Positions 10 through 25,030 of a stretch of 32,000 nucleotides of DNA are shown one piece after another. The first letter of the stretch is position 1; every line of letters begins with the position of its first letter. The DNA comes from Candidatus Heimdallarchaeota archaeon B3_Heim (GTDB taxonomy: Archaea > Asgardarchaeota > Heimdallarchaeia > Hodarchaeales > Hodarchaeaceae), in contig NJBF01000026.1 of assembly GCA_003144275.1 (NCBI GenBank), positions 35,363 to 67,362 on the forward strand, in the 5' to 3' direction. Both the position numbers and the translations under genes were made by a program. The notes beneath the pieces were generated by a model, which saw nothing but the letters and a program-made list of their open reading frames with translations, ran no database searches and was not told the origin of the DNA.

Positions 10-3000
10 TTGAGGGAAGATATCTTGTTTAAGATAACCAAAGAAGGTAAAAACAAAACCATTTTAATACTAGTTTTATTTATTATTGCGGGAAATTCCA
101 CGTTTAACAAAGTTACCATCATTCATGAAAGTACCTATAGTACTGCTTCATTAGTAAATAGAATTTGTGAAAAAGATACGTTTAACCGAAATCTTACAAA
201 ACCTCAATATATACTTACTGAACACGTACAATCAAAATTTGAAATATACAACCAGCCTATTTACAACAGAATCAAACGTGAAACTAGTTCAGATTCCTTT
301 TTCCGAGCCGAAGAGTATAGAAAAAGACATCTTCTTCCCATATCCGATTACAATGGAATATCAACATTTTCGGATCAATCCAGCGCAGTTTATTCTGTGG
401 CATACGGTCCAAATGGAACTATTGCAAGTTCAAGTGATGGATTAATTCTAATATGGAATGCTACAACAGGAAGTATCCTAAATTCACTAAGTTACGGTTC
501 TGCAGTACGATCCATATCTTTCCATCACAATGGAAGTGTTTTAGCCTTTGGAACTGATGATTTCAAAGTGAATCTATGGAATCTTAATACAGATAATGTT
601 AAAACACTAAGTAACCATGCAGGAGCAATTCATTCTGTTTCATTTAGCCCAAATGGCAGCCTTTTAGCTTCAGGATCCGAAGATTGGACGATAAATCTAT
701 GGTATGTTGATGGGACTACAACGCCAATCAAAACTTTAATTGGACATTTTGACACTGTATATGCCGTAGATTTTAGTCATAACGATACTGTTTTAATTTC
801 TGGTTCTGCAGATAATGACATTAGAATCTGGGATGTTAATACTCCAGTGTCAAGCTCAAAAAAATTATTAACTGGCTTTCATAACGATTCTGTAAGATCG
901 GTCTCTTATAGTCCAACGGGGGAATATTTTGCCTCAGGAGCAGGATCAGTTGATAAAACTATTAAAATATGGGATGGATTAACAGCTGCATTAGTTGATA
1001 ATCTAACAGATCATACTGATGTTATAAGATCAGTTACATTTGATCCTAAGAATGATGAACTGTTAGCATCAGGAAGTCAAGATGGTAAGGTGAATCTTTG
1101 GAATATTACAACAGCATCAAAAATCAAAGAGATGACGGATCATTCAGGTTTTGTATATTCTGTTTCTTTTGACCCAAGCGGAAACCACTTGATTTCTGGG
1201 GGAACTGACACAACAGTTAAACTCTGGAACCTCAATCTTGGAAATTTAATAGGAAAAATTGATGGACACACAAATTATATTAATTCCATTGCTTTCAGCC
1301 CTAATGGTAGTTTACTCGCCTCAGGATCTGAGGACACAACCGCAAGAATATGGAACACGACAACTGGAGGTCATTTACTAACTTTACCAGATCATATTTC
1401 CCCAATTGATACTCTTGCATTTAGTCCAAATAGTAGTACATTAGCAACTGGTTCACCGGATAATAATGTTATACTTTGGGATTTAAATGATAACGGAAAT
1501 ATTGTACATATTCTAAACCATCCTACTGATGTAACATCAGTTGTTTTTCATCCAAATGGTTCCATTTTAGCCTCAAGTTTGATTAACAGTAATATATCTC
1601 TTTGGAACATTAATACAGGAGAATTAATTTGCAATTTACCAGGGAATACTGATGAAATCCATTCTTTAACCTTTAATCAAGATGGAAACCACTTAGTTGC
1701 TGGATTACGCGATGGTTCAATAAATATATGGGACGTTGAAACACGATCAATATTAACAAGCTTAACCAATCATAGTGATTCAGTTGTTTCTCTTGCTTTT
1801 AGTTCTAATGCGCAATATTTTGCTTCTGGTTCTAAAGATTCAAGTATTTTAGTTTGGAATGCTTCTACGTTTGAAATAATTTACAATTTAACTGGCCATT
1901 CTGCTGAAATAAAATCTGTGATATTTAGTCCTGATGGAAGTGCATTAGCTTCGTGTGCCGATGATCAAACTATTCAAGTATGGGATATGGTAGATGGTAG
2001 TCGAATTAGGACAATGAATGATCCAAATAATGCAACTTCAGTTGCTTTTAATCTAAATGGGAATATATTAGCCTCTGGAAATCGTCTATCAACAGCAATC
2101 AAATTATGGAATTCAAGCATTTCTCTTCTTAGTTTTGACAATTTTTCTTCATCATTAGTCAAATATAATTCAGATTTAAATTTTAAAAAAGAACCACAGT
2201 GTGAACTGTCTGCAGGATGGAATACAACTTCTCTTACAATCGTACATAATTCTAGCTCATTTAGAACACCATCATCCTTTGACCCATATAGATTGTTTAT
2301 CAAAACAAAATTCTTAGGAAGAGAAATCGCAAGAGATTATAATTTATTCATAATATCAACTTTTACTGATTATGATGGAGATGGTTTGCCCAATTCATGG
2401 GAAAAAATACATTCTACAGATCTCTTAGTGAATGACGCCAGTGATGACATAGACAACGACTATCTTTCAAATTTAGGAGAGTTTCAAGCTCAAACTGATC
2501 CAAACAATAGAGATTCGGACAACGATGGGTGGTTTGATGGATCAGAAGTTTCAAATTCATCAAATCCGCTAGTAAATAACTCTGCTCCTTTTATTACATG
2601 GCCTGAATCTCTAAAGACATTAAATAATTCAGCTACAAACATTTCTAATCAAAGTTGGCAAGTTAACACAACTAATGCAAAATCAATTGATATTTGGGTA
2701 AATGATAATTATACAGAGACAGTTATTTATCCTTTCATCTGGAATGTAACATTAATCGAAGAATTGAATAATTTAACATATATAGCTTATTATGATGTTC
2801 CTGTGAATTATAATAAGACTGTATTCTTAATTACATTAGATTCTACTGCACCAACGATTAATCTTGTTAATCCATTGACTGAAGATGCAGTACTTAATAG
2901 TAAAAGCACAATTACTATAAATGTACAAGGATATAATGAACTATTTTCATATTGGGACAACGGGAGCTTTAGTAAAACAGAAATTCAGACAAAAGTAAAC

Positions 3001-4167
3001 TTTATCTCAAATCATACCTCTCTTAAGCTTTTAAACACAAAAACTGATTCAAATATTAATTTTGAACTACCTGGATCAGATGGAGTTCATACACTCTATT
3101 TAATGGCAGTTGATGAGGTTGGAAATATTCGATTGGCTGATTTTTCATTCATTACAGATGATACTCCTCCAACTGCCATAATCCAAGGAATATCTGAATT
3201 TCTATTTATGTCTGGGACGAAAGTCATTAGAGTTATTCCTAGTGATAATAATTCTATTGATCGAGTTGAATTCGAATTATCGGGAGACCTTATTACCACT
3301 GATAATAATTCACCATATCGGTGGGAATGGAATACAGCTGAAACAGAAGATGGAATTTATTTGATTCGTATTACAGTCTACGATGCCGCAGGAAATGCCT
3401 ACACAAAGACATTTTACGGGATTTTTGTGGTGAATGATCCCATTGAATTTCTCTGTTTCCTTTTCTTAGAGTATTTCCCAGTGTTTTTATTGATTATCCT
3501 TGCAATACTTATCTTAATAATAATATGTAGTATGAGAAAGAAGATTCATATTTTATACACATATGCTAATCCACCAATTAACCCACTAGAAATTAAACCA
3601 GAGATTGTGTTTAATAAAATAGAGGAAGAACTTAAAGAAACAAAGTATGGAAACAGAATAAAACTCATTCAAAAGGGAGAAATAACTAAAGATGATCTTT
3701 CACCATGGCTAGCTGATCCTAATTTTAAACTCAGTGTTTTTCAATTTTCAGGACATGGAAAAAAGGGATATCTTCAATTTATAAACCCAGAGGACACTAA
3801 TCTTGGGGAAGCAATTCCTGCAGATCATATCACTGAAGCTTTTCGTTTACATAAAAATAAAATCAAAATCGTAGTTTTACGAGCATGCTCTTCTTTAAAG
3901 ATTGCTGAGAGTCTAATGGAACATATTGATATTATAATTGGAATGTCCAAAGAAGTTCAAGATGCTGCTGCAGCAAAATTCACAATTGGATTCTATAAGT
4001 TCTTAGCAGCTGGCAAGAACGTGCAAGAAGCATACGAAAAAGGATTATCAGATATGGAAATTTCAAAAGGGCACGGTCGTGATATTGTTAAGTTAGTACA
4101 TCGTGAAGAAGTAAAACCTGGGAAAGTAAAACTCTTTCGATGGCGGTTTTTACTATGTTTTTTATAA
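10..4167 (+). CDS. Single-pass membrane protein: 14x WD40 + TSP3-like Ca-binding repeats + Ig-like domains + TM helix + C-terminal CHAT (caspase-like) protease domain
   Basis: N-terminal basic+hydrophobic segment (KNKTILILVLFIIAG). 14 GH...S(G/A)S.D..I..W(D/N) repeats (nt ~358-2115). Three DxDxD(G) repeats (DYDGDGLPNSWE, DIDNDYLSNLGE, DSDNDGWFDGSE; ~2368-2550). Ig-like segments ending in AVDEVGN and VYDAAGN. Hydrophobic helix at ~3448-3528. CHAT motifs FSGHG (His1249, nt 3754) and VVLRACSS (Cys1293, nt 3886), then IIIGM and FTIGFY. The frame is open back to base 1, so the true start may lie upstream of the window. Confidence 0.9.
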   Translation: MREDILFKITKEGKNKTILILVLFIIAGNSTFNKVTIIHESTYSTASLVNRICEKDTFNRNLTKPQYILTEHVQSKFEIYNQPIYNRIKRETSSDSFFRAEEYRKRHLLPISDYNGISTFSDQSSAVYSVAYGPNGTIASSSDGLILIWNATTGSILNSLSYGSAVRSISFHHNGSVLAFGTDDFKVNLWNLNTDNVKTLSNHAGAIHSVSFSPNGSLLASGSEDWTINLWYVDGTTTPIKTLIGHFDTVYAVDFSHNDTVLISGSADNDIRIWDVNTPVSSSKKLLTGFHNDSVRSVSYSPTGEYFASGAGSVDKTIKIWDGLTAALVDNLTDHTDVIRSVTFDPKNDELLASGSQDGKVNLWNITTASKIKEMTDHSGFVYSVSFDPSGNHLISGGTDTTVKLWNLNLGNLIGKIDGHTNYINSIAFSPNGSLLASGSEDTTARIWNTTTGGHLLTLPDHISPIDTLAFSPNSSTLATGSPDNNVILWDLNDNGNIVHILNHPTDVTSVVFHPNGSILASSLINSNISLWNINTGELICNLPGNTDEIHSLTFNQDGNHLVAGLRDGSINIWDVETRSILTSLTNHSDSVVSLAFSSNAQYFASGSKDSSILVWNASTFEIIYNLTGHSAEIKSVIFSPDGSALASCADDQTIQVWDMVDGSRIRTMNDPNNATSVAFNLNGNILASGNRLSTAIKLWNSSISLLSFDNFSSSLVKYNSDLNFKKEPQCELSAGWNTTSLTIVHNSSSFRTPSSFDPYRLFIKTKFLGREIARDYNLFIISTFTDYDGDGLPNSWEKIHSTDLLVNDASDDIDNDYLSNLGEFQAQTDPNNRDSDNDGWFDGSEVSNSSNPLVNNSAPFITWPESLKTLNNSATNISNQSWQVNTTNAKSIDIWVNDNYTETVIYPFIWNVTLIEELNNLTYIAYYDVPVNYNKTVFLITLDSTAPTINLVNPLTEDAVLNSKSTITINVQGYNELFSYWDNGSFSKTEIQTKVNFISNHTSLKLLNTKTDSNINFELPGSDGVHTLYLMAVDEVGNIRLADFSFITDDTPPTAIIQGISEFLFMSGTKVIRVIPSDNNSIDRVEFELSGDLITTDNNSPYRWEWNTAETEDGIYLIRITVYDAAGNAYTKTFYGIFVVNDPIEFLCFLFLEYFPVFLLIILAILILIIICSMRKKIHILYTYANPPINPLEIKPEIVFNKIEEELKETKYGNRIKLIQKGEITKDDLSPWLADPNFKLSVFQFSGHGKKGYLQFINPEDTNLGEAIPADHITEAFRLHKNKIKIVVLRACSSLKIAESLMEHIDIIIGMSKEVQDAAAAKFTIGFYKFLAAGKNVQEAYEKGLSDMEISKGHGRDIVKLVHREEVKPGKVKLFRWRFLLCFL

Positions 4168-4214: not shown

Positions 4215-4613
4215 ATGGAAGTTGAAATGAATATAATTTTTGAAGAAAAAATTGAAACAAGTAAATTAAATACTTTTATTAAGGAATTAAACAATGAAAC
4301 CATGAAAATAGATGAAGATCTAGGAGAAATGAGAACATTCAAAGAAACAAGTCAAGCAATGCCTCTTGATCCCATAATAAAACAATTACTTATCGCTGTT
4401 TTAGCACCTATTTTTACCGACTACATTCGAGAAAAGAGTCCTGTTGCAAAAAAATATGCCAAAAAAATGTTTAAGAAAGTCTTTGAAAAGATGAAAAAAT
4501 TAACAAACAAATCAAAGATTGTCATCAAAAAGGCAGGAGAAGAGATAATGACTCTACTCGAAGGCACTGATGAAGAATTTGATAAAGCAGTGAGAATACT
4601 CTCACTAGAATAA
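4215..4613 (+). CDS. Small hypothetical protein, EACC1-like putative partner/substrate of the CHAT protease
   Basis: AGGTGA Shine-Dalgarno before the ATG, 47 nt after the CHAT gene stop, T-tract after its own stop. Strand-helix-strand, QAMP loop, hydrophobic/amphipathic helix (LDPIIKQLLIAVLAPIF), then KIVIKKAGEEI and a terminal helix. The family assignment is from recalled pattern only. Confidence 0.6.
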   Translation: MEVEMNIIFEEKIETSKLNTFIKELNNETMKIDEDLGEMRTFKETSQAMPLDPIIKQLLIAVLAPIFTDYIREKSPVAKKYAKKMFKKVFEKMKKLTNKSKIVIKKAGEEIMTLLEGTDEEFDKAVRILSLE

Positions 4614-5000: not shown

Positions 5001-7139
5001 TTGCAGACTAGTTCCACATCATTTCATTTCGATTTTATTCCTGATAAGATAGATCAATCAAGTATTAAGCTTCTTAGAAATGTATCTGATTCTTTTACTC
5101 TAGAATACGCGATTTTTGAACCCAAAACGGTTCATATTTGCATGCATGTTAAACCTAGAAGACGTTTTTTCAGACGTTCCTCACATTCTGCAACTGCTAC
5201 ACTCCAGCAATTCATTATTTCTCTCGGACTTCATGCCGACTTTCTCAAACCAAGTGAAGATCCGATCCCTAGACTTCTTAGTATGATCGAGCCCCAGTTT
5301 TTTCTAGACCCAGAAGAACCCTGTCTTCATAGCGGTGGGTTGCTGGGTCTAGAAATTGACTCTTTACCTTCTTTATCAACGAAAGATGGATTCATTAATG
5401 GGTTACTTGAAATAATCACTGATGATCCAACTTTCACCCTTTTACAGATTCCATTCAAATCACAGAAAATTCCGAAAGAATTTCAATCCTTAGAAACTGC
5501 TGATTATAGAAACCAAATTAGATTTAATATCCAACAAGGAAAGGTTGAACGTCGTTCACATCCTTTCAGTATGAATCTTATGGAAGAAGCTGGTTGTTTT
5601 GCTTTTTCAGTTCATCTTTTGATGGTTGAGCGTTCAGAAGAACAGCTACTAGCCAAATTAGAACGAGTCTCTGTATTTCTAAAAGCCCATGGAATTAAGA
5701 CTCGGAAATATCCTTCCTTTTTACGTCCGTTTAAACGTTTTAAATCACATTTCAAGAGCCGATCTATCCATCCAGCCTTGGTTACTGATGGATTCACGTT
5801 AATGAATTATCTATCGTTACCAACCAATCAATATTCACTACATGGGTATCAAATAGTCCCTCACAAGGAGAATTATAATATGTCTTCCACTTTATCACAT
5901 CTTGATACAGAAAATACCCTTAGAATTGGAACCCCAATTCTGAGTGGGAAAACAACTGATTCTCCTATGCTTCTTTCAGGTAAAGATCTGTCTCGTCATA
6001 TGGCGGTATTTGGGATGACAGGAGAAGGGAAAAGTCGGTTTGTCTTTAACCTAATTCAAGAATTTCACAAAAATAAAGTGAATTTCTTAATTATAGACCC
6101 CAAAGGTGAATATATCCATCCAGTACAAACATTTTGTCAAGATTTTTTTTATATTAAACCAGGTTCTGATTCCTTTCCTTGGGGGATTAACCTTTTTGAA
6201 GTTCCTTTGGATCCACAAGGTCAGCCTCTGATCTCTCCAGAAGATCATATTCAATTCGTTGTTTCATTGCTCGAAAATGTGGTTGATGAAGCTAATTCTT
6301 TATCTCCCCAGATGAGACGCTTAATCCAATTAGCTACCATTCAAACCATTAAAGAGAAAGGCGATTTCAAATTATTCTTACAATGCTTAAATAAGCCTAA
6401 TGCCCTTGGACTCAAAGGAGCCTATTTAGAAAATACATCGGCCGGTACCGTTAACCGTATCATGAAGCTGTTATTTGGGAATACTGGAAGATGTTTTACT
6501 GTGAGCTCAACCACGTTTGATATTTCGCAATTTCTCTCTCACAATATTATTTTGGATTTATCGACATTTGAAGCAATGGAAGACATAAATGGCCGACAAT
6601 TACTTCTGGAGGTTATATTCCAGTATCTCTATTACTATATCCGGAAATTTCGTCCCCCCTTCAAAGAAGAAAAACTTCCCCAGAATGTCATAATCCTTGA
6701 TGAAATCAACAAACTCCTACCTGCACCCACCTATAGACAATCAACACCAAAGTCAATAATTGGCCGCGGGCCTTGGACCTTGCGTGCATATGATGTATCA
6801 ATGGTGTTTATAGGAACCGACCCAATAATAGATCTTCCTATGTTGACGAATGCGGGTGTATTTGCAATGTTTTATTCGAAGTTCGATTCATATAAAATCG
6901 CAGATTTTTTGGGTATTTCTAAGGGCACGTATGATCAATTGAAACCCCTACTTAAGGCCAAACCTGATGAAAGAAGATGTTTACTTTCGGTTAATAAAAA
7001 TGTGACCTTGTTGAAAACAGATCAATTTGAGCTAAGTTCTTCGAACTCCTCTATCTTTGAATTGTTGAAAGAAAATCCTATTCAGATGCATCTCAGAGAA
7101 AGTTATACCCAGAACTATTTTCAGCCAATCTTTGAGTAA
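5001..7139 (+). CDS. HerA/VirB4-like (DUF87-type) P-loop ATPase with a long N-terminal domain
   Basis: DLSRHMAVFGMTGEGKS (Walker A), IIDPKGEY, IILDEIN (Walker B), LRAY (Arg-finger region). TTG start is uncertain. Confidence 0.85.
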   Translation: MQTSSTSFHFDFIPDKIDQSSIKLLRNVSDSFTLEYAIFEPKTVHICMHVKPRRRFFRRSSHSATATLQQFIISLGLHADFLKPSEDPIPRLLSMIEPQFFLDPEEPCLHSGGLLGLEIDSLPSLSTKDGFINGLLEIITDDPTFTLLQIPFKSQKIPKEFQSLETADYRNQIRFNIQQGKVERRSHPFSMNLMEEAGCFAFSVHLLMVERSEEQLLAKLERVSVFLKAHGIKTRKYPSFLRPFKRFKSHFKSRSIHPALVTDGFTLMNYLSLPTNQYSLHGYQIVPHKENYNMSSTLSHLDTENTLRIGTPILSGKTTDSPMLLSGKDLSRHMAVFGMTGEGKSRFVFNLIQEFHKNKVNFLIIDPKGEYIHPVQTFCQDFFYIKPGSDSFPWGINLFEVPLDPQGQPLISPEDHIQFVVSLLENVVDEANSLSPQMRRLIQLATIQTIKEKGDFKLFLQCLNKPNALGLKGAYLENTSAGTVNRIMKLLFGNTGRCFTVSSTTFDISQFLSHNIILDLSTFEAMEDINGRQLLLEVIFQYLYYYIRKFRPPFKEEKLPQNVIILDEINKLLPAPTYRQSTPKSIIGRGPWTLRAYDVSMVFIGTDPIIDLPMLTNAGVFAMFYSKFDSYKIADFLGISKGTYDQLKPLLKAKPDERRCLLSVNKNVTLLKTDQFELSSSNSSIFELLKENPIQMHLRESYTQNYFQPIFE

Positions 7140-8422: not shown

Positions 8423-8839
8423 TTAAGATCCCCAGAGATTTTGCAATTCTGGTAAAATGGTTACTGTAAGCAGTGTTATTATTCCTTGAATCAGGATCGC
8501 CGTAGCTAATGCAAAGAAGATACTCAACAACGTACCCAGCAAATAATATTCTGCAAAATGGCGTTCTTTAAGTTGTTCAAATCGGGCCATTGATTTGGCA
8601 ACGAATACAAAGGAAATCGCCCCGAATTCTCCCATTAATGCCAAAGTCAGGATTATTGCTCTTTCTACCTGTCCAATCTTTTTACCTGCTCCCGAAAGAC
8701 CCATTGGTTTCTCGGTTGATTTGGGATCCTTATAGGGAGATAAGAAATGGCCAACGAAAAAGGCTCCCCCAAAAATCGTCCATAGATACGCGCATAGATA
8801 AAGCAAAGCAAGTATTATAAATAATTCCAGTTGAAACAA
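8423..8839 (-). CDS. DUF3307-like small membrane protein (SatD-associated)
   Basis: Motifs IGQVERAII...AKSMARF...FAEYYLLGTLLS are typical of the membrane proteins encoded after satD. Three hydrophobic segments. A GGAGGA SD 6 nt before the TTG at 8839 supports this start over the track's GTG at 8863. Confidence 0.75.
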   Translation of the reverse strand: MFQLELFIILALLYLCAYLWTIFGGAFFVGHFLSPYKDPKSTEKPMGLSGAGKKIGQVERAIILTLALMGEFGAISFVFVAKSMARFEQLKERHFAEYYLLGTLLSIFFALATAILIQGIITLLTVTILPELQNLWGS

Positions 8840-8856
8840 ATGGTATCCTCCTTGGA

Positions 8857-9492
8857 TCAGCACTTTGGGTATGATAATTTATTTAATGTTTCGATTGCTA
8901 AAGAGATTTCCTCCCAATGAGCACTTTTGAGAATGTTTGAAACTGCCTGTTTTGTAATGTTTTCTTCTTTTTCTGTTATAATTTTTTTTCCGATCTTTTC
9001 ATAGGTTAAACCCTGTTTCCGAAGGTGAATAACCTCTTTTTGTCTATTTGTCCATTGCAACTTTAAGGTGGTTAAGAGAGTTAGTAAAGAATTTGTCAAT
9101 TGATCAAATGAATCATTTTCTGACTGTATCCAAGCTGTTCGACGATTATCACTTGCAATCTTCAAAGCTGCTCGTGATCTATGAAAAGCAAGACCATCCA
9201 TTTCCAGAGACTTTCTAGAAAATTTGGTACTAATCGTCCCGATTCCTAAACCACATCGAAATTTAAATGAGAGATCTTCTTCTAATCGTTCAAAAATTGA
9301 ATAAAAATCTGTTAATTCCTTTAAAACTCCTTGAAATGAATCCCCCCAGACAATAATGAAGGGAGACATTATTTTTTTTGAATAATCAATATTTATTTGT
9401 TTAATTACCGTTTTCAACTCTTCTTGAACTTCAAGTCTATTGGTGACTTCTTTTGAATGTACAATATCGCAAGTCATAACGAAATACATCAT
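8857..9492 (-). CDS. satD: SatD family protein (nucleotide-cyclase-like fold + C-terminal HTH)
   Basis: TCDIVHS, WGDSFQG, FRCGLGIG, DGLAFHRSR, then WTNRQKEVI...LTYEKIG...TKQAVSNILK. GGTGA SD upstream. Confidence 0.85.
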   Translation of the reverse strand: MMYFVMTCDIVHSKEVTNRLEVQEELKTVIKQINIDYSKKIMSPFIIVWGDSFQGVLKELTDFYSIFERLEEDLSFKFRCGLGIGTISTKFSRKSLEMDGLAFHRSRAALKIASDNRRTAWIQSENDSFDQLTNSLLTLLTTLKLQWTNRQKEVIHLRKQGLTYEKIGKKIITEKEENITKQAVSNILKSAHWEEISLAIETLNKLSYPKC

Positions 9493-14045: not shown

Positions 14046-14151
14046 TGGGCCTGGGGGGATTTGAACCCACGAACCATCCGGTTATGAGCCGGACGCTCTA
14101 ACCATTTCAGAGGGTTATGAGGTTATATGCCCTAAACTGAGCTACAGGCCC
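14046..14151 (-). tRNA. tRNA with CAT anticodon, probably tRNA-Ile2 (elongator Met not excluded), with a 30-nt D-loop intron
   Basis: Acceptor GGGCCTG/CAGGCCC, anticodon arm TCCGG-CTCATAA-CCGGA, T-loop TTCAAAT. Intron 14105-14134 sits in a BHB (TCAG/CTGA helix). G1-C72 excludes the archaeal initiator. There is one T-stem mismatch. Confidence 0.85.
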
Positions 14152-15901: not shown

Positions 15902-16326
15902 AAATAATACTTCCTCAACATATAAAACTAATTCCAGTATTCATTATAACATCTTAGATAAAAATATTAAAATCCAACGAAGTGGGTATTTCTTAATTTA
16001 TCAGTAAATCGGCATTCATTTCCGATTGTGTTATCATTCCGCCTTGAGACTGATTTCCTCCTAGTTCTGAATCATTTAGCGAGCTGAGAGAATATTTTTT
16101 TTTATAAATATATGTAATAACCCCTTTCATCAAAAACTACAATTAAACATCAAGAAAAGTAATCACCTTATGCAACCAGTATGAAAAGAAAAATAAAGGA
16201 TGATTAAGTCTGTAGCTATCAGTGGAAAAAACCTCTTTCAATCCTTTGGGTCGAGCAATTATATGCTTTATAACTTTAGGAAGGATTTGAAGGAGTTTGC
16301 TTTCAATCACTAAAGTAGGTATTATT

Positions 16327-17520
16327 ATGCCAGAAAGTGTGGATGACAAAAAAGCCACGTTCGATGAGTTCACTGATTCTTATACTCGTACAATGGAACG
16401 TCGGATACGTACACTGGAAACGGAGAAACAATTACTAGAAGTTCAACGAAATAAGTTAGAAGAGGATCGGGATAACTTAAGACTCGAACTACAAAAACTG
16501 AAACAACCTCCTCTGTTTACAGGCACATTGTTAGAAGTTCTAGAGAATGGAAAAGCTATCGTGAAGAGTTCTACTGGGCCTTCATTCGTTGTTGTTATTG
16601 ATTCGACCATTCCGAAGGACATACTTGTTCCTAATAGTCGAGTTGCTCTTCACCAGAGAAACTTTGCTATACTGGAAATTCTTCCCCAGAGCACAGATCC
16701 CCTTGTACGTAGCATGGAGATTGATATAAAACCATCTGAAACCTATGAGGATATTGGTGGGTTACGAGATCAATTGTTAGACCTTCGCGAAACGGTCGAG
16801 CTTCCTCTTTTACAACCCGAACTTTTTGAAAAGGTAGGAATTGAACCACCTAAAGGTGTTTTGCTGCATGGCCCTCCAGGTTCAGGAAAAACTCTCATGG
16901 TGAAAGCCGTTGCTCATGAAACACAAGCCACTTTCATTCGAGTCATTGGTTCCGAGCTGGTCCAGAAATACATCGGTGAAGGCGCACGATTAGTCCGTGA
17001 AGTGTTTGCTTATGCCCGTGATAATTCCCCAAGTATCCTATTCATTGATGAATTAGATGCTATCGGAAGTAAGCGGCTTGATATTGCCACAAGCGGTGAT
17101 CGTGAAGTTCAAAGGACATTAATGCAATTATTAAGTGAGTTAGATGGTTTTTCCCCACGTGGAGATGTGAAGATCATTGGAGCGACTAATCGTGTGGATA
17201 TACTTGATCCAGCATTGATGCGACCTGGACGATTTGATAGACATATTGAGGTTCCCTTACCAAATCTCGAAGAGAGATTCGAGATTCTCAAAATTCATTC
17301 AAGAAGTATGAATATTGAGAAAAATGTTGATTTGAATTTAGTTGCCACTCAAATGGTTGAAGCGTCTGGTGCAGATATTCGTGCCATAACTCAAGAAGCA
17401 GGCATGTTTGCTATACGAGAAAGAGTGACAATTGTAAAGTCAAAACACTTCCTTTCTGCAATCGATAAAGTGATATCCAAGAAGAAGGAAACTCTGTCTG
17501 GCAAGAATGAATATACTTGA
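16327..17520 (+). CDS. pan: Proteasome-activating nucleotidase (AAA+)
   Basis: N-terminal coiled coil and OB domain, [46 protein letters not shown]. The ATG at 16327 with a GTAGGT SD is preferred over the track's TTG at 16297. Confidence 0.97.
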
Positions 17521-19316: not shown

Positions 19317-20674
19317 CAGTCTTAACGTAACTTATAAAGCTTCAGATTTGCTAGTAAGAGCAGCCAAAAGCCTTATATAGTGATGATTCTGAATATAGAG
19401 ATATCTGAGGTCTCTATATGAAATTTCCCAGAATCACCAAACAATTTGTTCAGAAAGAGCTTTATAAGCTTTGTGATGGTTATGATACTTCACAATTAAT
19501 TCACAAATATTCGTTGAAAAGTACCTGGTATCCTCAAGACATCATCAAAAGGCTAATTCAGGTGTGTTTAGAGCGTACATCCCTAGAGGACATTTGCTCA
19601 TCGAGTGAAGGTCCTTCCGCTGATACTGTCCATAGACGATGTTCGGAACTTCAATTCGACCAAACGGAACAATTAGTCAATGGATGGCTCATTGAAGTGG
19701 CTTCACGTTTACGTTTCCATCCAAACACAAAAATTACCCTTGCTTTTGATATGTACTACCAACCTTATTATGAGAATCCTACTGCAGAGTGGGTTAGTGG
19801 TTATAAGAGGAATAAGGGTACAAATTATGCCATTTGCATGCTAGTGGCATCCATTGCTACTCAAAAGATTCGTTGTCCTGTAGCAGTACGTTTTATGACG
19901 AAAATCCGTCATAAAGAAAAAGCTGGACTTGTAAGTAGCATTTTGGATGATCTTTTTGATTGGTTACCTGTTAAACGAGTTCTTTTCGATCGAGGTTTCT
20001 GTCAAGAAGATATTATCCAGTTAGCAGAAGATAGAGGATTAGAATATATTATTGCAGCCGTTCGACATAGTACAATAAAACGAGCAGCCCAGACGATTCA
20101 AGAAACCGTACAGGCCCACGCTAGACTAGCTGGTGTCAATGTGGACGATCCTTTCGTTTTGGGTCAGTGGGCTTGCCAGCAAGGAATAGATACTTTTCGG
20201 GTTGAATACGTGGCTACAGGGAGGAAAAGAACCCAAGTTCCCTTAGTTGCCGCTTTTGTACGTAAGCGGACGTATCTTCAAAAACACCTTAAAAGGCGAA
20301 CTTACGGACTCTATCTCTATTTAACCAATACAAATGTTACCCCCAGACGAGTAGTCAAGTTATATAGTAAGAGGTGGATTGTTGAGACCGACATTCGATG
20401 TACCAATGAATTCAAAGCAGTAACGAATAGTACGAACCCTCAGCTACGATTACTCCTCTATGGGTTAGCAATGGTATTTAACGCTCTTTGGATAGTTTTT
20501 TCCACATTATTTCACCGTCTATCTGGTTTATCCTCTGAAATACTATCTGAAGAAGCTACGATTTCTATTAAACAGGCAGATAAACTAATCTGTATCGCAA
20601 GACGGTTTAAACGTTTCTTACGTCAAGAAATACTACCACAAATTCATTTTTTGGGAGGTGATACGTGAAAACTG
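19317..20674 (+). mobile_element. Complete insertion sequence, ISH3-like (IS4 superfamily-type DDE), 1358 bp
   Basis: Imperfect 15-bp TIRs CAGTCTTAACGTAAC (19317-19331) vs CAGTTTTCACGTATC (reverse complement of 20660-20674), 12/15 identical. Direct repeat GAATTT at 19311-19316 and 20675-20680. One intact transposase ORF. Confidence 0.9.
19418..20668 (+). CDS. DDE transposase, ISH3-like
   Basis: LAFDMYYQPYY (D1), VLFDRGF (D2), YSKRWIVETDIR (E, YREK-like). The stop codon lies inside the right TIR. Confidence 0.92.
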   Translation: MKFPRITKQFVQKELYKLCDGYDTSQLIHKYSLKSTWYPQDIIKRLIQVCLERTSLEDICSSSEGPSADTVHRRCSELQFDQTEQLVNGWLIEVASRLRFHPNTKITLAFDMYYQPYYENPTAEWVSGYKRNKGTNYAICMLVASIATQKIRCPVAVRFMTKIRHKEKAGLVSSILDDLFDWLPVKRVLFDRGFCQEDIIQLAEDRGLEYIIAAVRHSTIKRAAQTIQETVQAHARLAGVNVDDPFVLGQWACQQGIDTFRVEYVATGRKRTQVPLVAAFVRKRTYLQKHLKRRTYGLYLYLTNTNVTPRRVVKLYSKRWIVETDIRCTNEFKAVTNSTNPQLRLLLYGLAMVFNALWIVFSTLFHRLSGLSSEILSEEATISIKQADKLICIARRFKRFLRQEILPQIHFLGGDT

Positions 20675-22769: not shown

Positions 22770-23318
22770 ATGACTCAAGATAAGCAAGCGTCACCCTCAT
22801 TAACACTCGGCTGTATTCATGTTATTACGGGTGATGGGAAAGGAAAAACCACTTCTGCGTTAGGTCTTGCGCTAAGAGCCGCGGGTCACGACCTGAAGAC
22901 CTTAATGATTCAATTTATGAAAAAAGGATGGGATTATGGAGAATTGAGAGCAGTCCAGTCATTCCCAAATATCCAGATTATCCAGTACGGCACTCCTGAT
23001 TTTGTGAACAAAGCTAATCCCCTGCCTATCGATTTTCAGGAAGCTCAAGCAGCTCTGGCGCACTTTAAAAAGGAATTGAGTAATAATTGGGATATTATCA
23101 TATTAGATGAGGTTAACGTGGCACTTGATTATCACTTAATTTCTGAGCAGGAGGTTCTTGATCTTCTCGAGAGAAAACCTAAAAATCTTGAGGTCATATT
23201 AACTGGTAGATATGCCAGTCAAGCCATAATTGACCTAGCTGATTATTATACAACAATACAATCTGTTAAACATCCGTATCAACATAACATTAATGCCCGA
23301 AAAGGTGTAGAATTTTGA
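22770..23318 (+). CDS. cobO: Cob(I)alamin adenosyltransferase, CobA/CobO/BtuR type
   Basis: [48 protein letters not shown]...ARKGVEF. Confidence 0.95.
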
Positions 23319-25030
23319 CTACCTCTCCGAAACGTCCCAATAAAGACCCAAATACAGAAACCCCCCCCGATCGTGCTGAAATCCTTCAGAAGCGAAAAAA
23401 TTGGGAGGAAGAATATGAGCAATTAATGAAAAAAAAGCCTGAGAGACTTTCTAGCTTCATTACAACATCAAGTATGCCAATTAACCGTCTTTATGATCCT
23501 ACCGATCTACCACAAGATTGGAGCTACTTAAAAGACGTGGGTTATCCAGGTGAATTTCCTTATACTCGCGGAGTACAGCAAACTATGTATCGTGGTCGTT
23601 TGTGGACAATGAGACAATTTGCTGGTTTTGGAGGAGCAGAAGAGACTAACCAAAGATTTAAATTTCTTTTAGCTAACGGAATGACAGGTCTGAGTGTGGC
23701 CTTTCATCTACCTACTCTGTATGGACGAGAGTCGACACATCCGATGTCTCTGGGGGAAGTGGGGAAACTTGGAGTAGCCATTGACACATTACGGGATATG
23801 GAAATTCTTTTTGACGGAATTCCGTTAGACAAAGTTACTACCTCGATGACTATTAATGCTCCTGCAGCCATTCTGCTGTCTATGTATATCGCAGTAGCAG
23901 AAAAACAAGGCGTTTCCCCAGATCAAATAGGAGGGACAATACAAAACGACATTCTTAAGGAGTATATGGCGCAAAAATCATATATATTCCCACCTAAGTC
24001 ATCGATGCGGCTTATCGTTGATACAATTAAATATTGTTCTAAATTTGTCCCTAGGTGGAATACGATATCGATTTCTGGTTATCACATCCGTGAAGCAGGA
24101 TCTACTGCGGCTCAAGAGCTCGCATTTACCCTGATCAATGGATTAGAATACGTTAAATGGGCCGTCAAATCAGGGATGGAAATAGATGAATTTGCACCTA
24201 GATTATCATTCTTTTTTAATTCGCATAACGATTTCTTCGAAGAAATTGCTAAATTCCGAGCAGCCCGGCGTATTTGGGCACGGTGGATGAGAAAGTTCTC
24301 TCCAAAGAATGAACGCTCTCTCTGGCTTAGATTTCATACACAGACTGCAGGTTGTTCTTTAACAGCTCAACAGCCGTATAATAACGTTGTACGAACTACT
24401 GTTCAATCTATGGCTGCTGTAATAGGCGGCACACAGTCGTTACATACTAATTCGTTGGATGAAGCCCTTGCTTTACCCAGTGAAGATGCAGTAGAAATAG
24501 CATTACGTACGCAACAAATAATTGCTCATGAAAGTGGACTTACTAATACGATTGATCCATTTGCAGGGAGTTATTTCGTGGAGAGCCTTACAAACTTGAT
24601 GGAAAAAGAAGTTGAAGACTATCTCCAAAAAGTAGACCAACTCGGAGGAGTAATCCCCGCTATTGAGAAGGGATTCTTCCAGCAAGAGATCGCGAATGCA
24701 GCTTACCAATATCAAAAGGAAATCGAAAAAAATGAAAGGACCATCGTAAGTGTTAACGATTTTACCAAAGATGAAGATATTAAAATTCCAATTTTACAAA
24801 TTGGAGATGAGATTGCTGAAAGACAAAAAAAGCGATTAGAACAAGTTAAACAGGAAAGAAATACTGAAAAAGTAACTAACGCCTTATTAAAAATTCAAGA
24901 AGCAGCCAAGGGAAACGAAAATTTGTTTCCACTGATATTAGATGCAGTAAAATTGTATGCCTCCATTGGGGAAATATGCGATGTTCTAAGGGAAGTTTTT
25001 GGAGAATGGAAAGGAGATTTATTGTTTTAA
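23315..25030 (+). CDS. B12-dependent acyl-CoA mutase, large (substrate-binding) subunit; isobutyryl-CoA-mutase-type active site
   Basis: [61 protein letters not shown]. The TTG start overlaps the cobO stop. Confidence 0.95.

Follow-up and report, generated by a model that had tools for sequence, protein, structure and literature searches.

The window analysed here is a stretch of 32,000 nucleotides (nt) from Candidatus Heimdallarchaeota archaeon B3_Heim (contig NJBF01000026.1, positions 35,363 to 67,362). An open reading frame (ORF) on its forward strand encodes a protein of 1385 amino acids (aa) in which a WD40 ectodomain is joined to a CHAT domain by a single transmembrane (TM) helix. We consider it probable that this protein is a type I single-pass glycoprotein, possibly clustered by ligand, with an external N-glycosylated double WD40 propeller, TSP3 repeats and an immunoglobulin (Ig)-like stalk, and with a CHAT cysteine protease in the cytoplasm. 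The probable Asgard origin proposed in a preliminary description of the sequence was borne out by the PAN ATPase of the window, which was 94–98% identical to the copies in "Candidatus Hodarchaeota"/Heimdallarchaeota metagenome-assembled genomes.

The C-terminal domain is 208 aa long, and its first beta-strand (KIHILY..ANP) starts ~6 residues downstream of the TM helix. A phmmer search against all PDB sequences gave one significant match, 8TL0 (E 1.4e-8, query residues 8–185), in which FSGHG was aligned with FIGHG, and LRAC with LNAC. 8TL0 is an activated SAVED-CHAT filament, a "CHAT domain-containing protein" with H375 and C422 as the published catalytic residues. The residues of 8TL0 aligned to the His and Cys were 47 residues apart, the same spacing as between H375 and C422. 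We infer that the constant 20-residue offset between the 8TL0 chain and H375/C422 is a matter of construct numbering.

An exhaustive HMMER pass over 1.84 billion representatives recovered 9336 relatives at E <= 1e-3 and 3613 at E <= 1e-10. Pfam CHAT was matched by 86 of the 87 aligned relatives (E <= 0.001), and the profile of the family scored the C-terminal domain at E 4.4e-55. Across the 87-sequence alignment G-H-G was invariant, and A-C was conserved in at least 90%.

AlphaFold2 (AF2), run on the same alignment, gave a model with a predicted local distance difference test score (pLDDT) of 93.3 and a predicted template modelling score (pTM) of 0.90. Foldseek placed the 8TL0 chains first (E 2.5e-14, TMq 0.77–0.82), followed by MALT1, CED-3, caspase-4/-11/-1/-3, Dronc, legumain and gingipain. 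The model and this ranking both correspond to the caspase-hemoglobinase alpha/beta fold (clan CD). In the model His72 follows strand 64–71 and Cys116 follows strand 110–115, which places the His of the HG motif and the Cys each at the C-terminal end of a core beta-strand.

The domain was assigned to CHAT because its match to 8TL0, the profile of its relatives and its predicted fold agreed. It belongs to the compact CHAT clade as a divergent member, and its dyad is intact. His1249-Gly1250 and Cys1293 are 44 residues apart and in register with H375 and C422 of SAVED-CHAT. The preliminary description had pointed to these residues and had expected the domain to model as a CHAT/caspase fold, and both expectations held. 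Cysteine protease activity is predicted from the intact His-Cys dyad. A homodimer prediction of the domain scored 0.00 and was uninformative in either direction. The short aromatic and hydrophobic extension at the C-terminus (..LFRWRFLLCFL) may be a membrane-binding tail.

The most hydrophobic segment of the protein by far was residues 1147–1174 (Kyte-Doolittle 3.27). It is flanked by acidic NDPIE on the N-terminal side and by basic MRKK on the CHAT side. The protein contains 38 N-X-S/T sequons, all in residues 15–1099, and none in the 208-aa tail after the helix. The lack of sequons in the tail is uninformative alone, because only 0.63 would be expected from its composition. The sequon density of the ectodomain was 3.31 per 100 aa, compared with a mean of 0.64 and a 99th percentile of 2.64 for the ORFs of the genome (rank 6 of 2837). 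The number of ectodomain sequons also exceeded that in composition-preserving shuffles (37 observed versus 23.6 +/- 4.0). The composition shifted across the helix from N/S/T-rich and K/E-poor outside to K/E-rich inside. STT3/AglB is encoded in the genome (E 2.6e-45).

The strongest of the arguments on topology is a paralogue in the same genome, C51. It carries a canonical extracellular SBP_bac_5 domain in the slot of the WD40 array, which would fix the orientation of the common chassis. The placement of the ectodomain outside and of CHAT in the cytoplasm is thus a well supported prediction, on which sequons, positive-inside charge and the paralogue agree. The helix and the outside-in topology given in the preliminary description were therefore retained. 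The opposite arrangement, a cytoplasmic WD40 part with an external CHAT domain, is opposed by the sequons, the RKK-inside charge, the extracellular-type TSP3 and Big_7 domains and the SBP_bac_5 paralogue. A thiol protease would also suit the reducing cytoplasm.

An assembly chimera of an ectodomain gene and a CHAT gene would also account for the architecture. The fusion is unique, and homology to the nearest relative (the G021 protein, below) ends near residue 933. Three DNA runs carry small shares of the gene and no RNA run is listed as carrying it; nt 2800–3367, the region where that homology stops, and most of 3600–4167 are without independent read cover. On the other hand, the gene is one uninterrupted frame of 4158 nt on a 67-kb contig, and a contig from another metagenome run matched nt 3368–3599 with 1 mismatch, and one from a second run nt 3380–3530 with 0 mismatches. 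These two contigs, from cold seep and subsurface runs, span the end of the Ig-like part, the TM helix and the start of CHAT, so the junction suspected in the preliminary description is bridged by independent assemblies. A chimera within nt 2800–3367 of the gene is unlikely, because of the one open frame on the 67-kb contig. We regard an artefact or an inverted topology as very improbable.

The gene itself is whole, as the contig shows the long frame that is open at base 1 to be closed further upstream. The identical 1385-aa protein is present in public protein collections as a singleton cluster (P0002). A word-based homologue search with the CHAT region among proteins of 763–2429 aa recovered solely the protein itself, and a search of genome contigs for loci related to this single protein found zero relatives.

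The domain order of the preliminary description (signal-like segment, 14 WD40, three TSP3, Ig-like, TM, CHAT) was reproduced by Pfam, hydropathy and motif inspection. At the N-terminus, a K-rich n-region is followed by a 12-residue hydrophobic core at residues 17–28. Pfam WD40 (PF00400) matched 13 stretches (E 7.5e-113), and 14 regularly spaced W[D/N/Y] blade ends, about 42 aa apart, were found in residues 149–701. These are consistent with two seven-bladed propellers. In 8 of the 14 blade-end dipeptides WN takes the place of WD, and several of these replacements create sequons.

Three TSP3 motifs of the DxDxDG type were seen by eye at residues 787–850, two of which were scored by Pfam TSP3_bac (E 3e-6). 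Big_7 (E 6.7e-10) and Big_13 (E 3.6e-8) matched at residues ~1070–1134, and the proteins related to the stalk are secreted or located at the cell surface, among them S8 peptidases and glycosidases. On our reading, the protein would exemplify an extracellular, N-glycosylated use of canonical WD40 propellers. A search of the available literature for extracellular WD40 in Asgard archaea returned nothing relevant.

The protein belongs to a family defined in this analysis by the order sensor, TSP3, TM helix and tail. Three paralogues were found in the same genome. C43 (G000:C43:25856-28192, minus strand; 778 aa) has a clear signal-like N-terminus, 7 WD40 blades, TSP3, a TM helix and a tail in which Cys pairs resemble those of a Zn-ribbon. 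C19 (G000:C19:17415-20789, plus strand; 1124 aa) has a less clear signal-like N-terminus, 7 WD40 blades, TSP3, a TM helix and a TPR/MIT-like helical tail. C51 (G000:C51:4690-7824, plus strand; 1044 aa) starts with a signal, which is followed by SBP_bac_5 (E 1.5e-59), one TSP3-like repeat and a TM helix, and it shares its TPR-like tail with the WD40 paralogues. Further members are the loci L079–L098, which are spread over 11 other genus genomes.

WD40 matches at E <= 1e-20 were present in 17 of the 22 genomes of the genus, with up to 12 per genome. Among 22 WD40 ORFs fetched from the genus, 20 combined 7 or 14 blades and a TM helix with a tail of 200–300 aa (in one member merely 18 aa). Most of these 20 had a hydrophobic N-terminus, above the TM threshold in 10 and recognised by eye in the others. 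The sequons of the family lie almost exclusively before the TM helix (for example, 28 in 947 residues versus 0 in 216). The tails fell into four unrelated classes: 16 TPR-like, 4 Zn-ribbon, 1 unique (G021) and 1 CHAT (the present gene). The cassette of TM helix plus TPR-like tail was found in 15 of 21 genus genomes, compared with 0 of 378 genomes sampled from 84 other Asgard genera. The family is undescribed in the searchable literature.

The nearest relative of the ectodomain is the G021 protein, with 42% identity over 856 aa (residues 88–933) and a different tail. No synteny was found between its flanks and the present locus. Its 216-aa tail (L079:3917-4564, G021:C187) contains DIS..(~50 aa)..GD motifs and gave a language-model (Atlas feature) match of 0.96 to adenylate/guanylate cyclase clusters. 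The motifs were in register with those of SatD, at a non-significant E of 0.41. The tail had zero matches in Pfam, zero in PDB and zero homologues in 83 genomes of the class, and a single-sequence AF2 model was unusable (pLDDT 37). We took a cyclase-like tail as a lead only.

We interpreted these members as variants of one predicted chassis, [WD40 x7, WD40 x14 or SBP_bac_5]-TSP3-TM-[cytoplasmic tail], of which the usual tail is replaced by CHAT in the present protein. By sequence comparison, the inner and the outer domains are both swapped among the members.

The genome has one CHAT copy, and one of the 21 other genomes of the genus has another, a 923-aa Ras/Roc GTPase-...-CHAT protein without a TM helix (L007:3110-5878, G019:C68). 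In a sample of 400 genomes of the phylum, 15 genomes (this one included) had a CHAT match at E <= 1e-10. No TM helix was seen in any of the other 16 Asgard CHAT copies, so the search for further ectodomain-TM-CHAT proteins suggested in the preliminary description produced no second case among these genomes. The partners in four copies checked with Pfam were Ras/Roc in the protein just named, and TPR, HEAT, and HEAT plus Schlafen in other Heimdallarchaeia copies (TPR-CHAT, HEAT-CHAT and HEAT-CHAT-Schlafen). A literature search for Asgard caspases or CHAT returned nothing relevant. Comparison of the CHAT domain with its relatives pointed to no donor. The domain was 30–40% identical to all relatives, and the Ras/Roc-CHAT protein of the same genus (33%) was no closer than metagenomic matches.

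The compact CHAT family is highly promiscuous in its fusion partners, which include kinases, TIR, NB-ARC, LRR-Roc, SIR2, E2 and ankyrin. TM segments outside CHAT were present in 35 of the 256 members inspected. The membrane forms include CHAT-TM-PKD/Big_7/TPR, multi-TM-CHAT and RHS-CHAT. Two relatives have the present orientation: P0279 (PKD...TM...CHAT) and P0291 (signal-TSP3-...-weak TM-CHAT).

These membrane forms bear on the view that the protein is a constitutive, membrane-localised housekeeping protease like HetF. Its ectodomain would then serve as an anchor (to the S-layer, to cell-cell contacts or at the division site), and its CHAT domain would process a protein that resides in the cytoplasm or the membrane. 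The founding CHAT protein, HetF, is a single-pass CHAT-TM-TPR protease that acts in cell division and differentiation (PMC8406250; PMC9457339). The common CHAT-TM-TPR/PKD/Big_7 forms among the relatives and the lack of defence genes recognised by PADLOC around the present gene agree with this view. However, presence in 1 of 22 genus genomes is unlike a housekeeping function, and a chassis on which sensor-type ectodomains (WD40 or SBP_bac_5) and output-type tails are exchanged suits receptors better than anchors. We therefore consider a housekeeping role unlikely.

For the preferred reading, a ligand-clustered receptor protease, the following course is proposed. The ectodomain would bind a ligand on a surface, on a virus or in a cell-cell contact. 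Clustering driven by the ligand would bring the membrane-apposed CHAT domains together, and these would cleave cytoplasmic substrates. The outcome could be signalling, dormancy or death. Caspases are activated by proximity. The step from ectodomain clustering to activation of CHAT was drawn by analogy with these and with filament-activated SAVED-CHAT, and we put it forward tentatively, as a possibility to which we give somewhat less than even weight.

Several points weigh against the receptor protease reading. The Pfam CHAT model (PF12770) scored the domain itself below its gathering score (17.5 bits versus 24, E 0.003), so the CHAT label used in the preliminary description fell short in this one comparison and depends instead on the fold, the profile of the family and the alignment to 8TL0. 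Two other library matches were also below threshold, Peptidase_C13 (E 0.12) and NCBIfam caspase_w_EACC1 (16.5 bits versus a cut-off of 140). The arguments on topology (hydropathy, charge, sequons and paralogues) are all at the level of sequence, and canonical WD40 propellers are usually intracellular. The linker that joins the TM helix to CHAT has only ~6 residues, and may limit contacts between CHAT domains of the kind found in SAVED-CHAT filaments. A substrate or partner was not found among the neighbours, where the downstream ORF is an orphan and no defence-system model of PADLOC fits. Finally, the ectodomain-TM-CHAT gene occurs in 1 of the 22 genus genomes, and because of this it could be a recent, perhaps non-functional, fusion.

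The short linker also bears on a self-processing surface protein. In this alternative CHAT would cut the chain it belongs to, or an adjacent one, close to the membrane and release a fragment, in the manner of DdvA, and the protease would be part of a regulated-proteolysis relay and not the effector. For DdvA, a single-pass anti-sigma factor, self-cleavage by its CHAT in trans between the chains of a dimer has been proposed (PMC11506125), and CHAT in the present protein abuts the membrane. However, the CHAT of DdvA is periplasmic and a cytoplasmic anti-sigma domain is released, whereas here only CHAT is cytoplasmic, which leaves no evident cargo; the juxtamembrane linker is only ~6 residues. 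We regard self-processing as improbable.

Prokaryotic caspase-fold proteases are being established as immune and cell-death effectors. To our knowledge, their known switches (SAVED, TPR-Cas7-11, STAND and TIR signals) are cytosolic. If the receptor protease reading is true, one helix joining a large glycosylated ectodomain to a protease would provide a direct outside-in route to proteolysis. The host lineage is used to model the archaeal ancestor of eukaryotes, and Hodarchaeales are among the closest archaeal relatives of eukaryotes. A broader and more doubtful extension is that a Hodarchaeales genus evolved eukaryote-style single-pass receptors, with glycosylated WD40 or solute-binding sensors and interchangeable outputs, and wired one of them to a caspase-fold protease. 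This would be a one-chain, adaptor-free analogue of death-receptor-to-caspase signalling that answers an external ligand (a virus, a neighbouring cell or the surface of a symbiont). The family, with its WD40 or SBP sensors and its TPR-like, Zn-ribbon, possibly cyclase-like and CHAT tails, offers natural domain swaps for asking how Asgard single-pass receptors signal.

Table 1. Features of the protease-receptor gene and the adjoining ORF (window positions)
Feature	Position	Strand	Basis or remark
Whole gene, 1385 aa	10..4167	+	TTG start, TAA stop; called protein in public collection
Signal-peptide-like hydrophobic segment, residues 17–28	58..93	+	Hydropathy; K-rich n-region before
14 WD40 blades, N-X-S/T-rich	340..2130	+	Pfam WD40 and blade-end spacing
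Three TSP3-type Ca-binding repeats (predicted)	2359..2559	+	Pfam and inspection
Ig-like stalk	2573..3429	+	Big_7/Big_13 at residues ~1070–1134; relatives secreted or surface
Single TM helix, residues 1147–1174	3448..3531	+	Hydropathy; bridged by contigs of two other runs
Compact CHAT (caspase-fold) domain	3541..4134	+	8TL0 match, family profile, AF2/Foldseek
Catalytic His1249-Gly1250 (predicted; His codon CAT, nt 3754–3756; invariant GHG)	3754..3759	+	Alignment
Catalytic Cys1293 (predicted; TGC; AC motif)	3886..3888	+	Alignment
Short aromatic/hydrophobic C-terminal extension	4135..4164	+	Lacking in relatives; low model confidence
Orphan 132-aa ORF, 47 nt downstream of gene	4215..4613	+	Link to protease unsupported by any search

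The orphan ORF downstream of the gene had no Pfam, NCBIfam or meaningful PADLOC match, and tblastn found no match to it in the genome or next to the other Asgard CHAT genes. Its identification as EACC1 or as a substrate of the protease was ruled unsupported by these family, PADLOC and tblastn searches. A reading of the locus as a defence island was likewise rejected: PADLOC recognised no system, and gave solely weak HerA-like matches in the next ORF on the same strand (5001–7139). This ORF follows after a non-coding gap of ~390 nt and encodes a 712-aa HerA/FtsK/CedD-like P-loop ATPase, of which the first ~300 residues match nothing.

The opposite strand carries a coiled-coil protein and a SatD pair (8423–9492, minus strand), in which a SatD-family gene (E 9.2e-27) overlaps a 146-aa ORF without a family match. 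A tRNA match on the minus strand (14046–14151) adjoins the gene for ribosomal protein L6. It spans 106 nt for a 71-position model, so that an archaeal tRNA with an intron is probable. In the middle of the window a DDE_Tnp_1 transposase gene (19418–20668, plus strand) is flanked by the genes for the PAN ATPase (16297–17520) and methylmalonyl-CoA mutase (23315–25030).

The closest solved relative is SAVED-CHAT of Haliangium ochraceum (8TL0), a member of a type III-B CRISPR/CBASS protease cascade, which is switched on by sensor-driven oligomerisation. It shares the compact CHAT domain with the GHG...AC dyad. It differs in being bacterial and in having a cytosolic SAVED sensor that binds cA3, without a membrane helix or an ectodomain. 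The present protein has no SAVED domain among its Pfam matches; its N-terminal 1145 residues are WD40, TSP3 and Big domains.

HetF of Anabaena PCC 7120, a single-pass membrane protease of the order CHAT-TM-TPR (PMC8406250), is experimentally a protease. It likewise combines a single-pass helix and a cytoplasmic-type CHAT protease with a repeat domain across the helix. All three elements (CHAT, one TM helix and an extracytoplasmic repeat domain) occur in the present protein, but the order is reversed and WD40/TSP3/Ig replaces TPR. The N-terminal CHAT region of HetF (aa 1–555) is also much larger, and HetF is cyanobacterial, with a role in development and division.

DdvA of Myxococcus xanthus (ZASD-TM-periplasmic TPR-CHAT) is a dimeric, single-pass transmembrane signalling protein with a CHAT module (PMC11506125). 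It differs in that its CHAT is periplasmic with an incomplete active site, and its output is the release of a sigma factor. P0279 and P0291 share external PKD/Ig or TSP3 repeats, a hydrophobic helix and a C-terminal compact CHAT with the present protein. Unlike it, they lack WD40 propellers and are much shorter; they are uncharacterised and, as far as the records show, non-archaeal, and the TM helix of P0291 is weak.

Related combinations are listed in the supplement to Kaur, Iyer, Burroughs and Aravind 2021 (PMC8195603). They include CASPASE+nSTAND1+TM+BetaPropeller (adjoining EACC1), vWA-L+TM+CASPASE and CASPASE+TM+TPR, and describe single bacterial chains of predicted conflict systems in which a caspase-fold protease occurs with a TM helix and a beta-propeller. 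The proteins of these rows differ in having a STAND nucleoside triphosphatase (NTPase) between protease and helix, an N-terminal protease and often an adjacent EACC1, and they are bacterial and uncharacterised. In the present protein, no STAND domain was found between the effector and the TM helix among the Pfam matches, and no EACC1 adjoins the gene.

The metazoan route from death receptor to caspase-8 is a functional analogy, in which a clustered external receptor activates an internal caspase-fold protease. It uses separate chains with death and DED adaptors, whereas the present protein has no death-fold domain, and the homology is limited to the caspase fold.

The preliminary description knew of no characterised protein with this architecture. 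This stood for the exact layout, which is uncharacterised, but not for membrane-linked CHAT or caspase domains in general, for which HetF, DdvA, P0279/P0291 and the proteins of Kaur et al. are precedents. The general plan, in which a helix connects an effector inside to a propeller outside, was already known, as a prediction, from genome analysis. What is new is the direct wiring of WD40 to CHAT with no NTPase involved, the type I order that includes a signal segment, the high number of sequons, the Asgard host and the modular receptor-like family. The significance of the protein thus comes mainly from its Asgard context and its receptor-like family, and not from the uniqueness of a membrane-linked CHAT.

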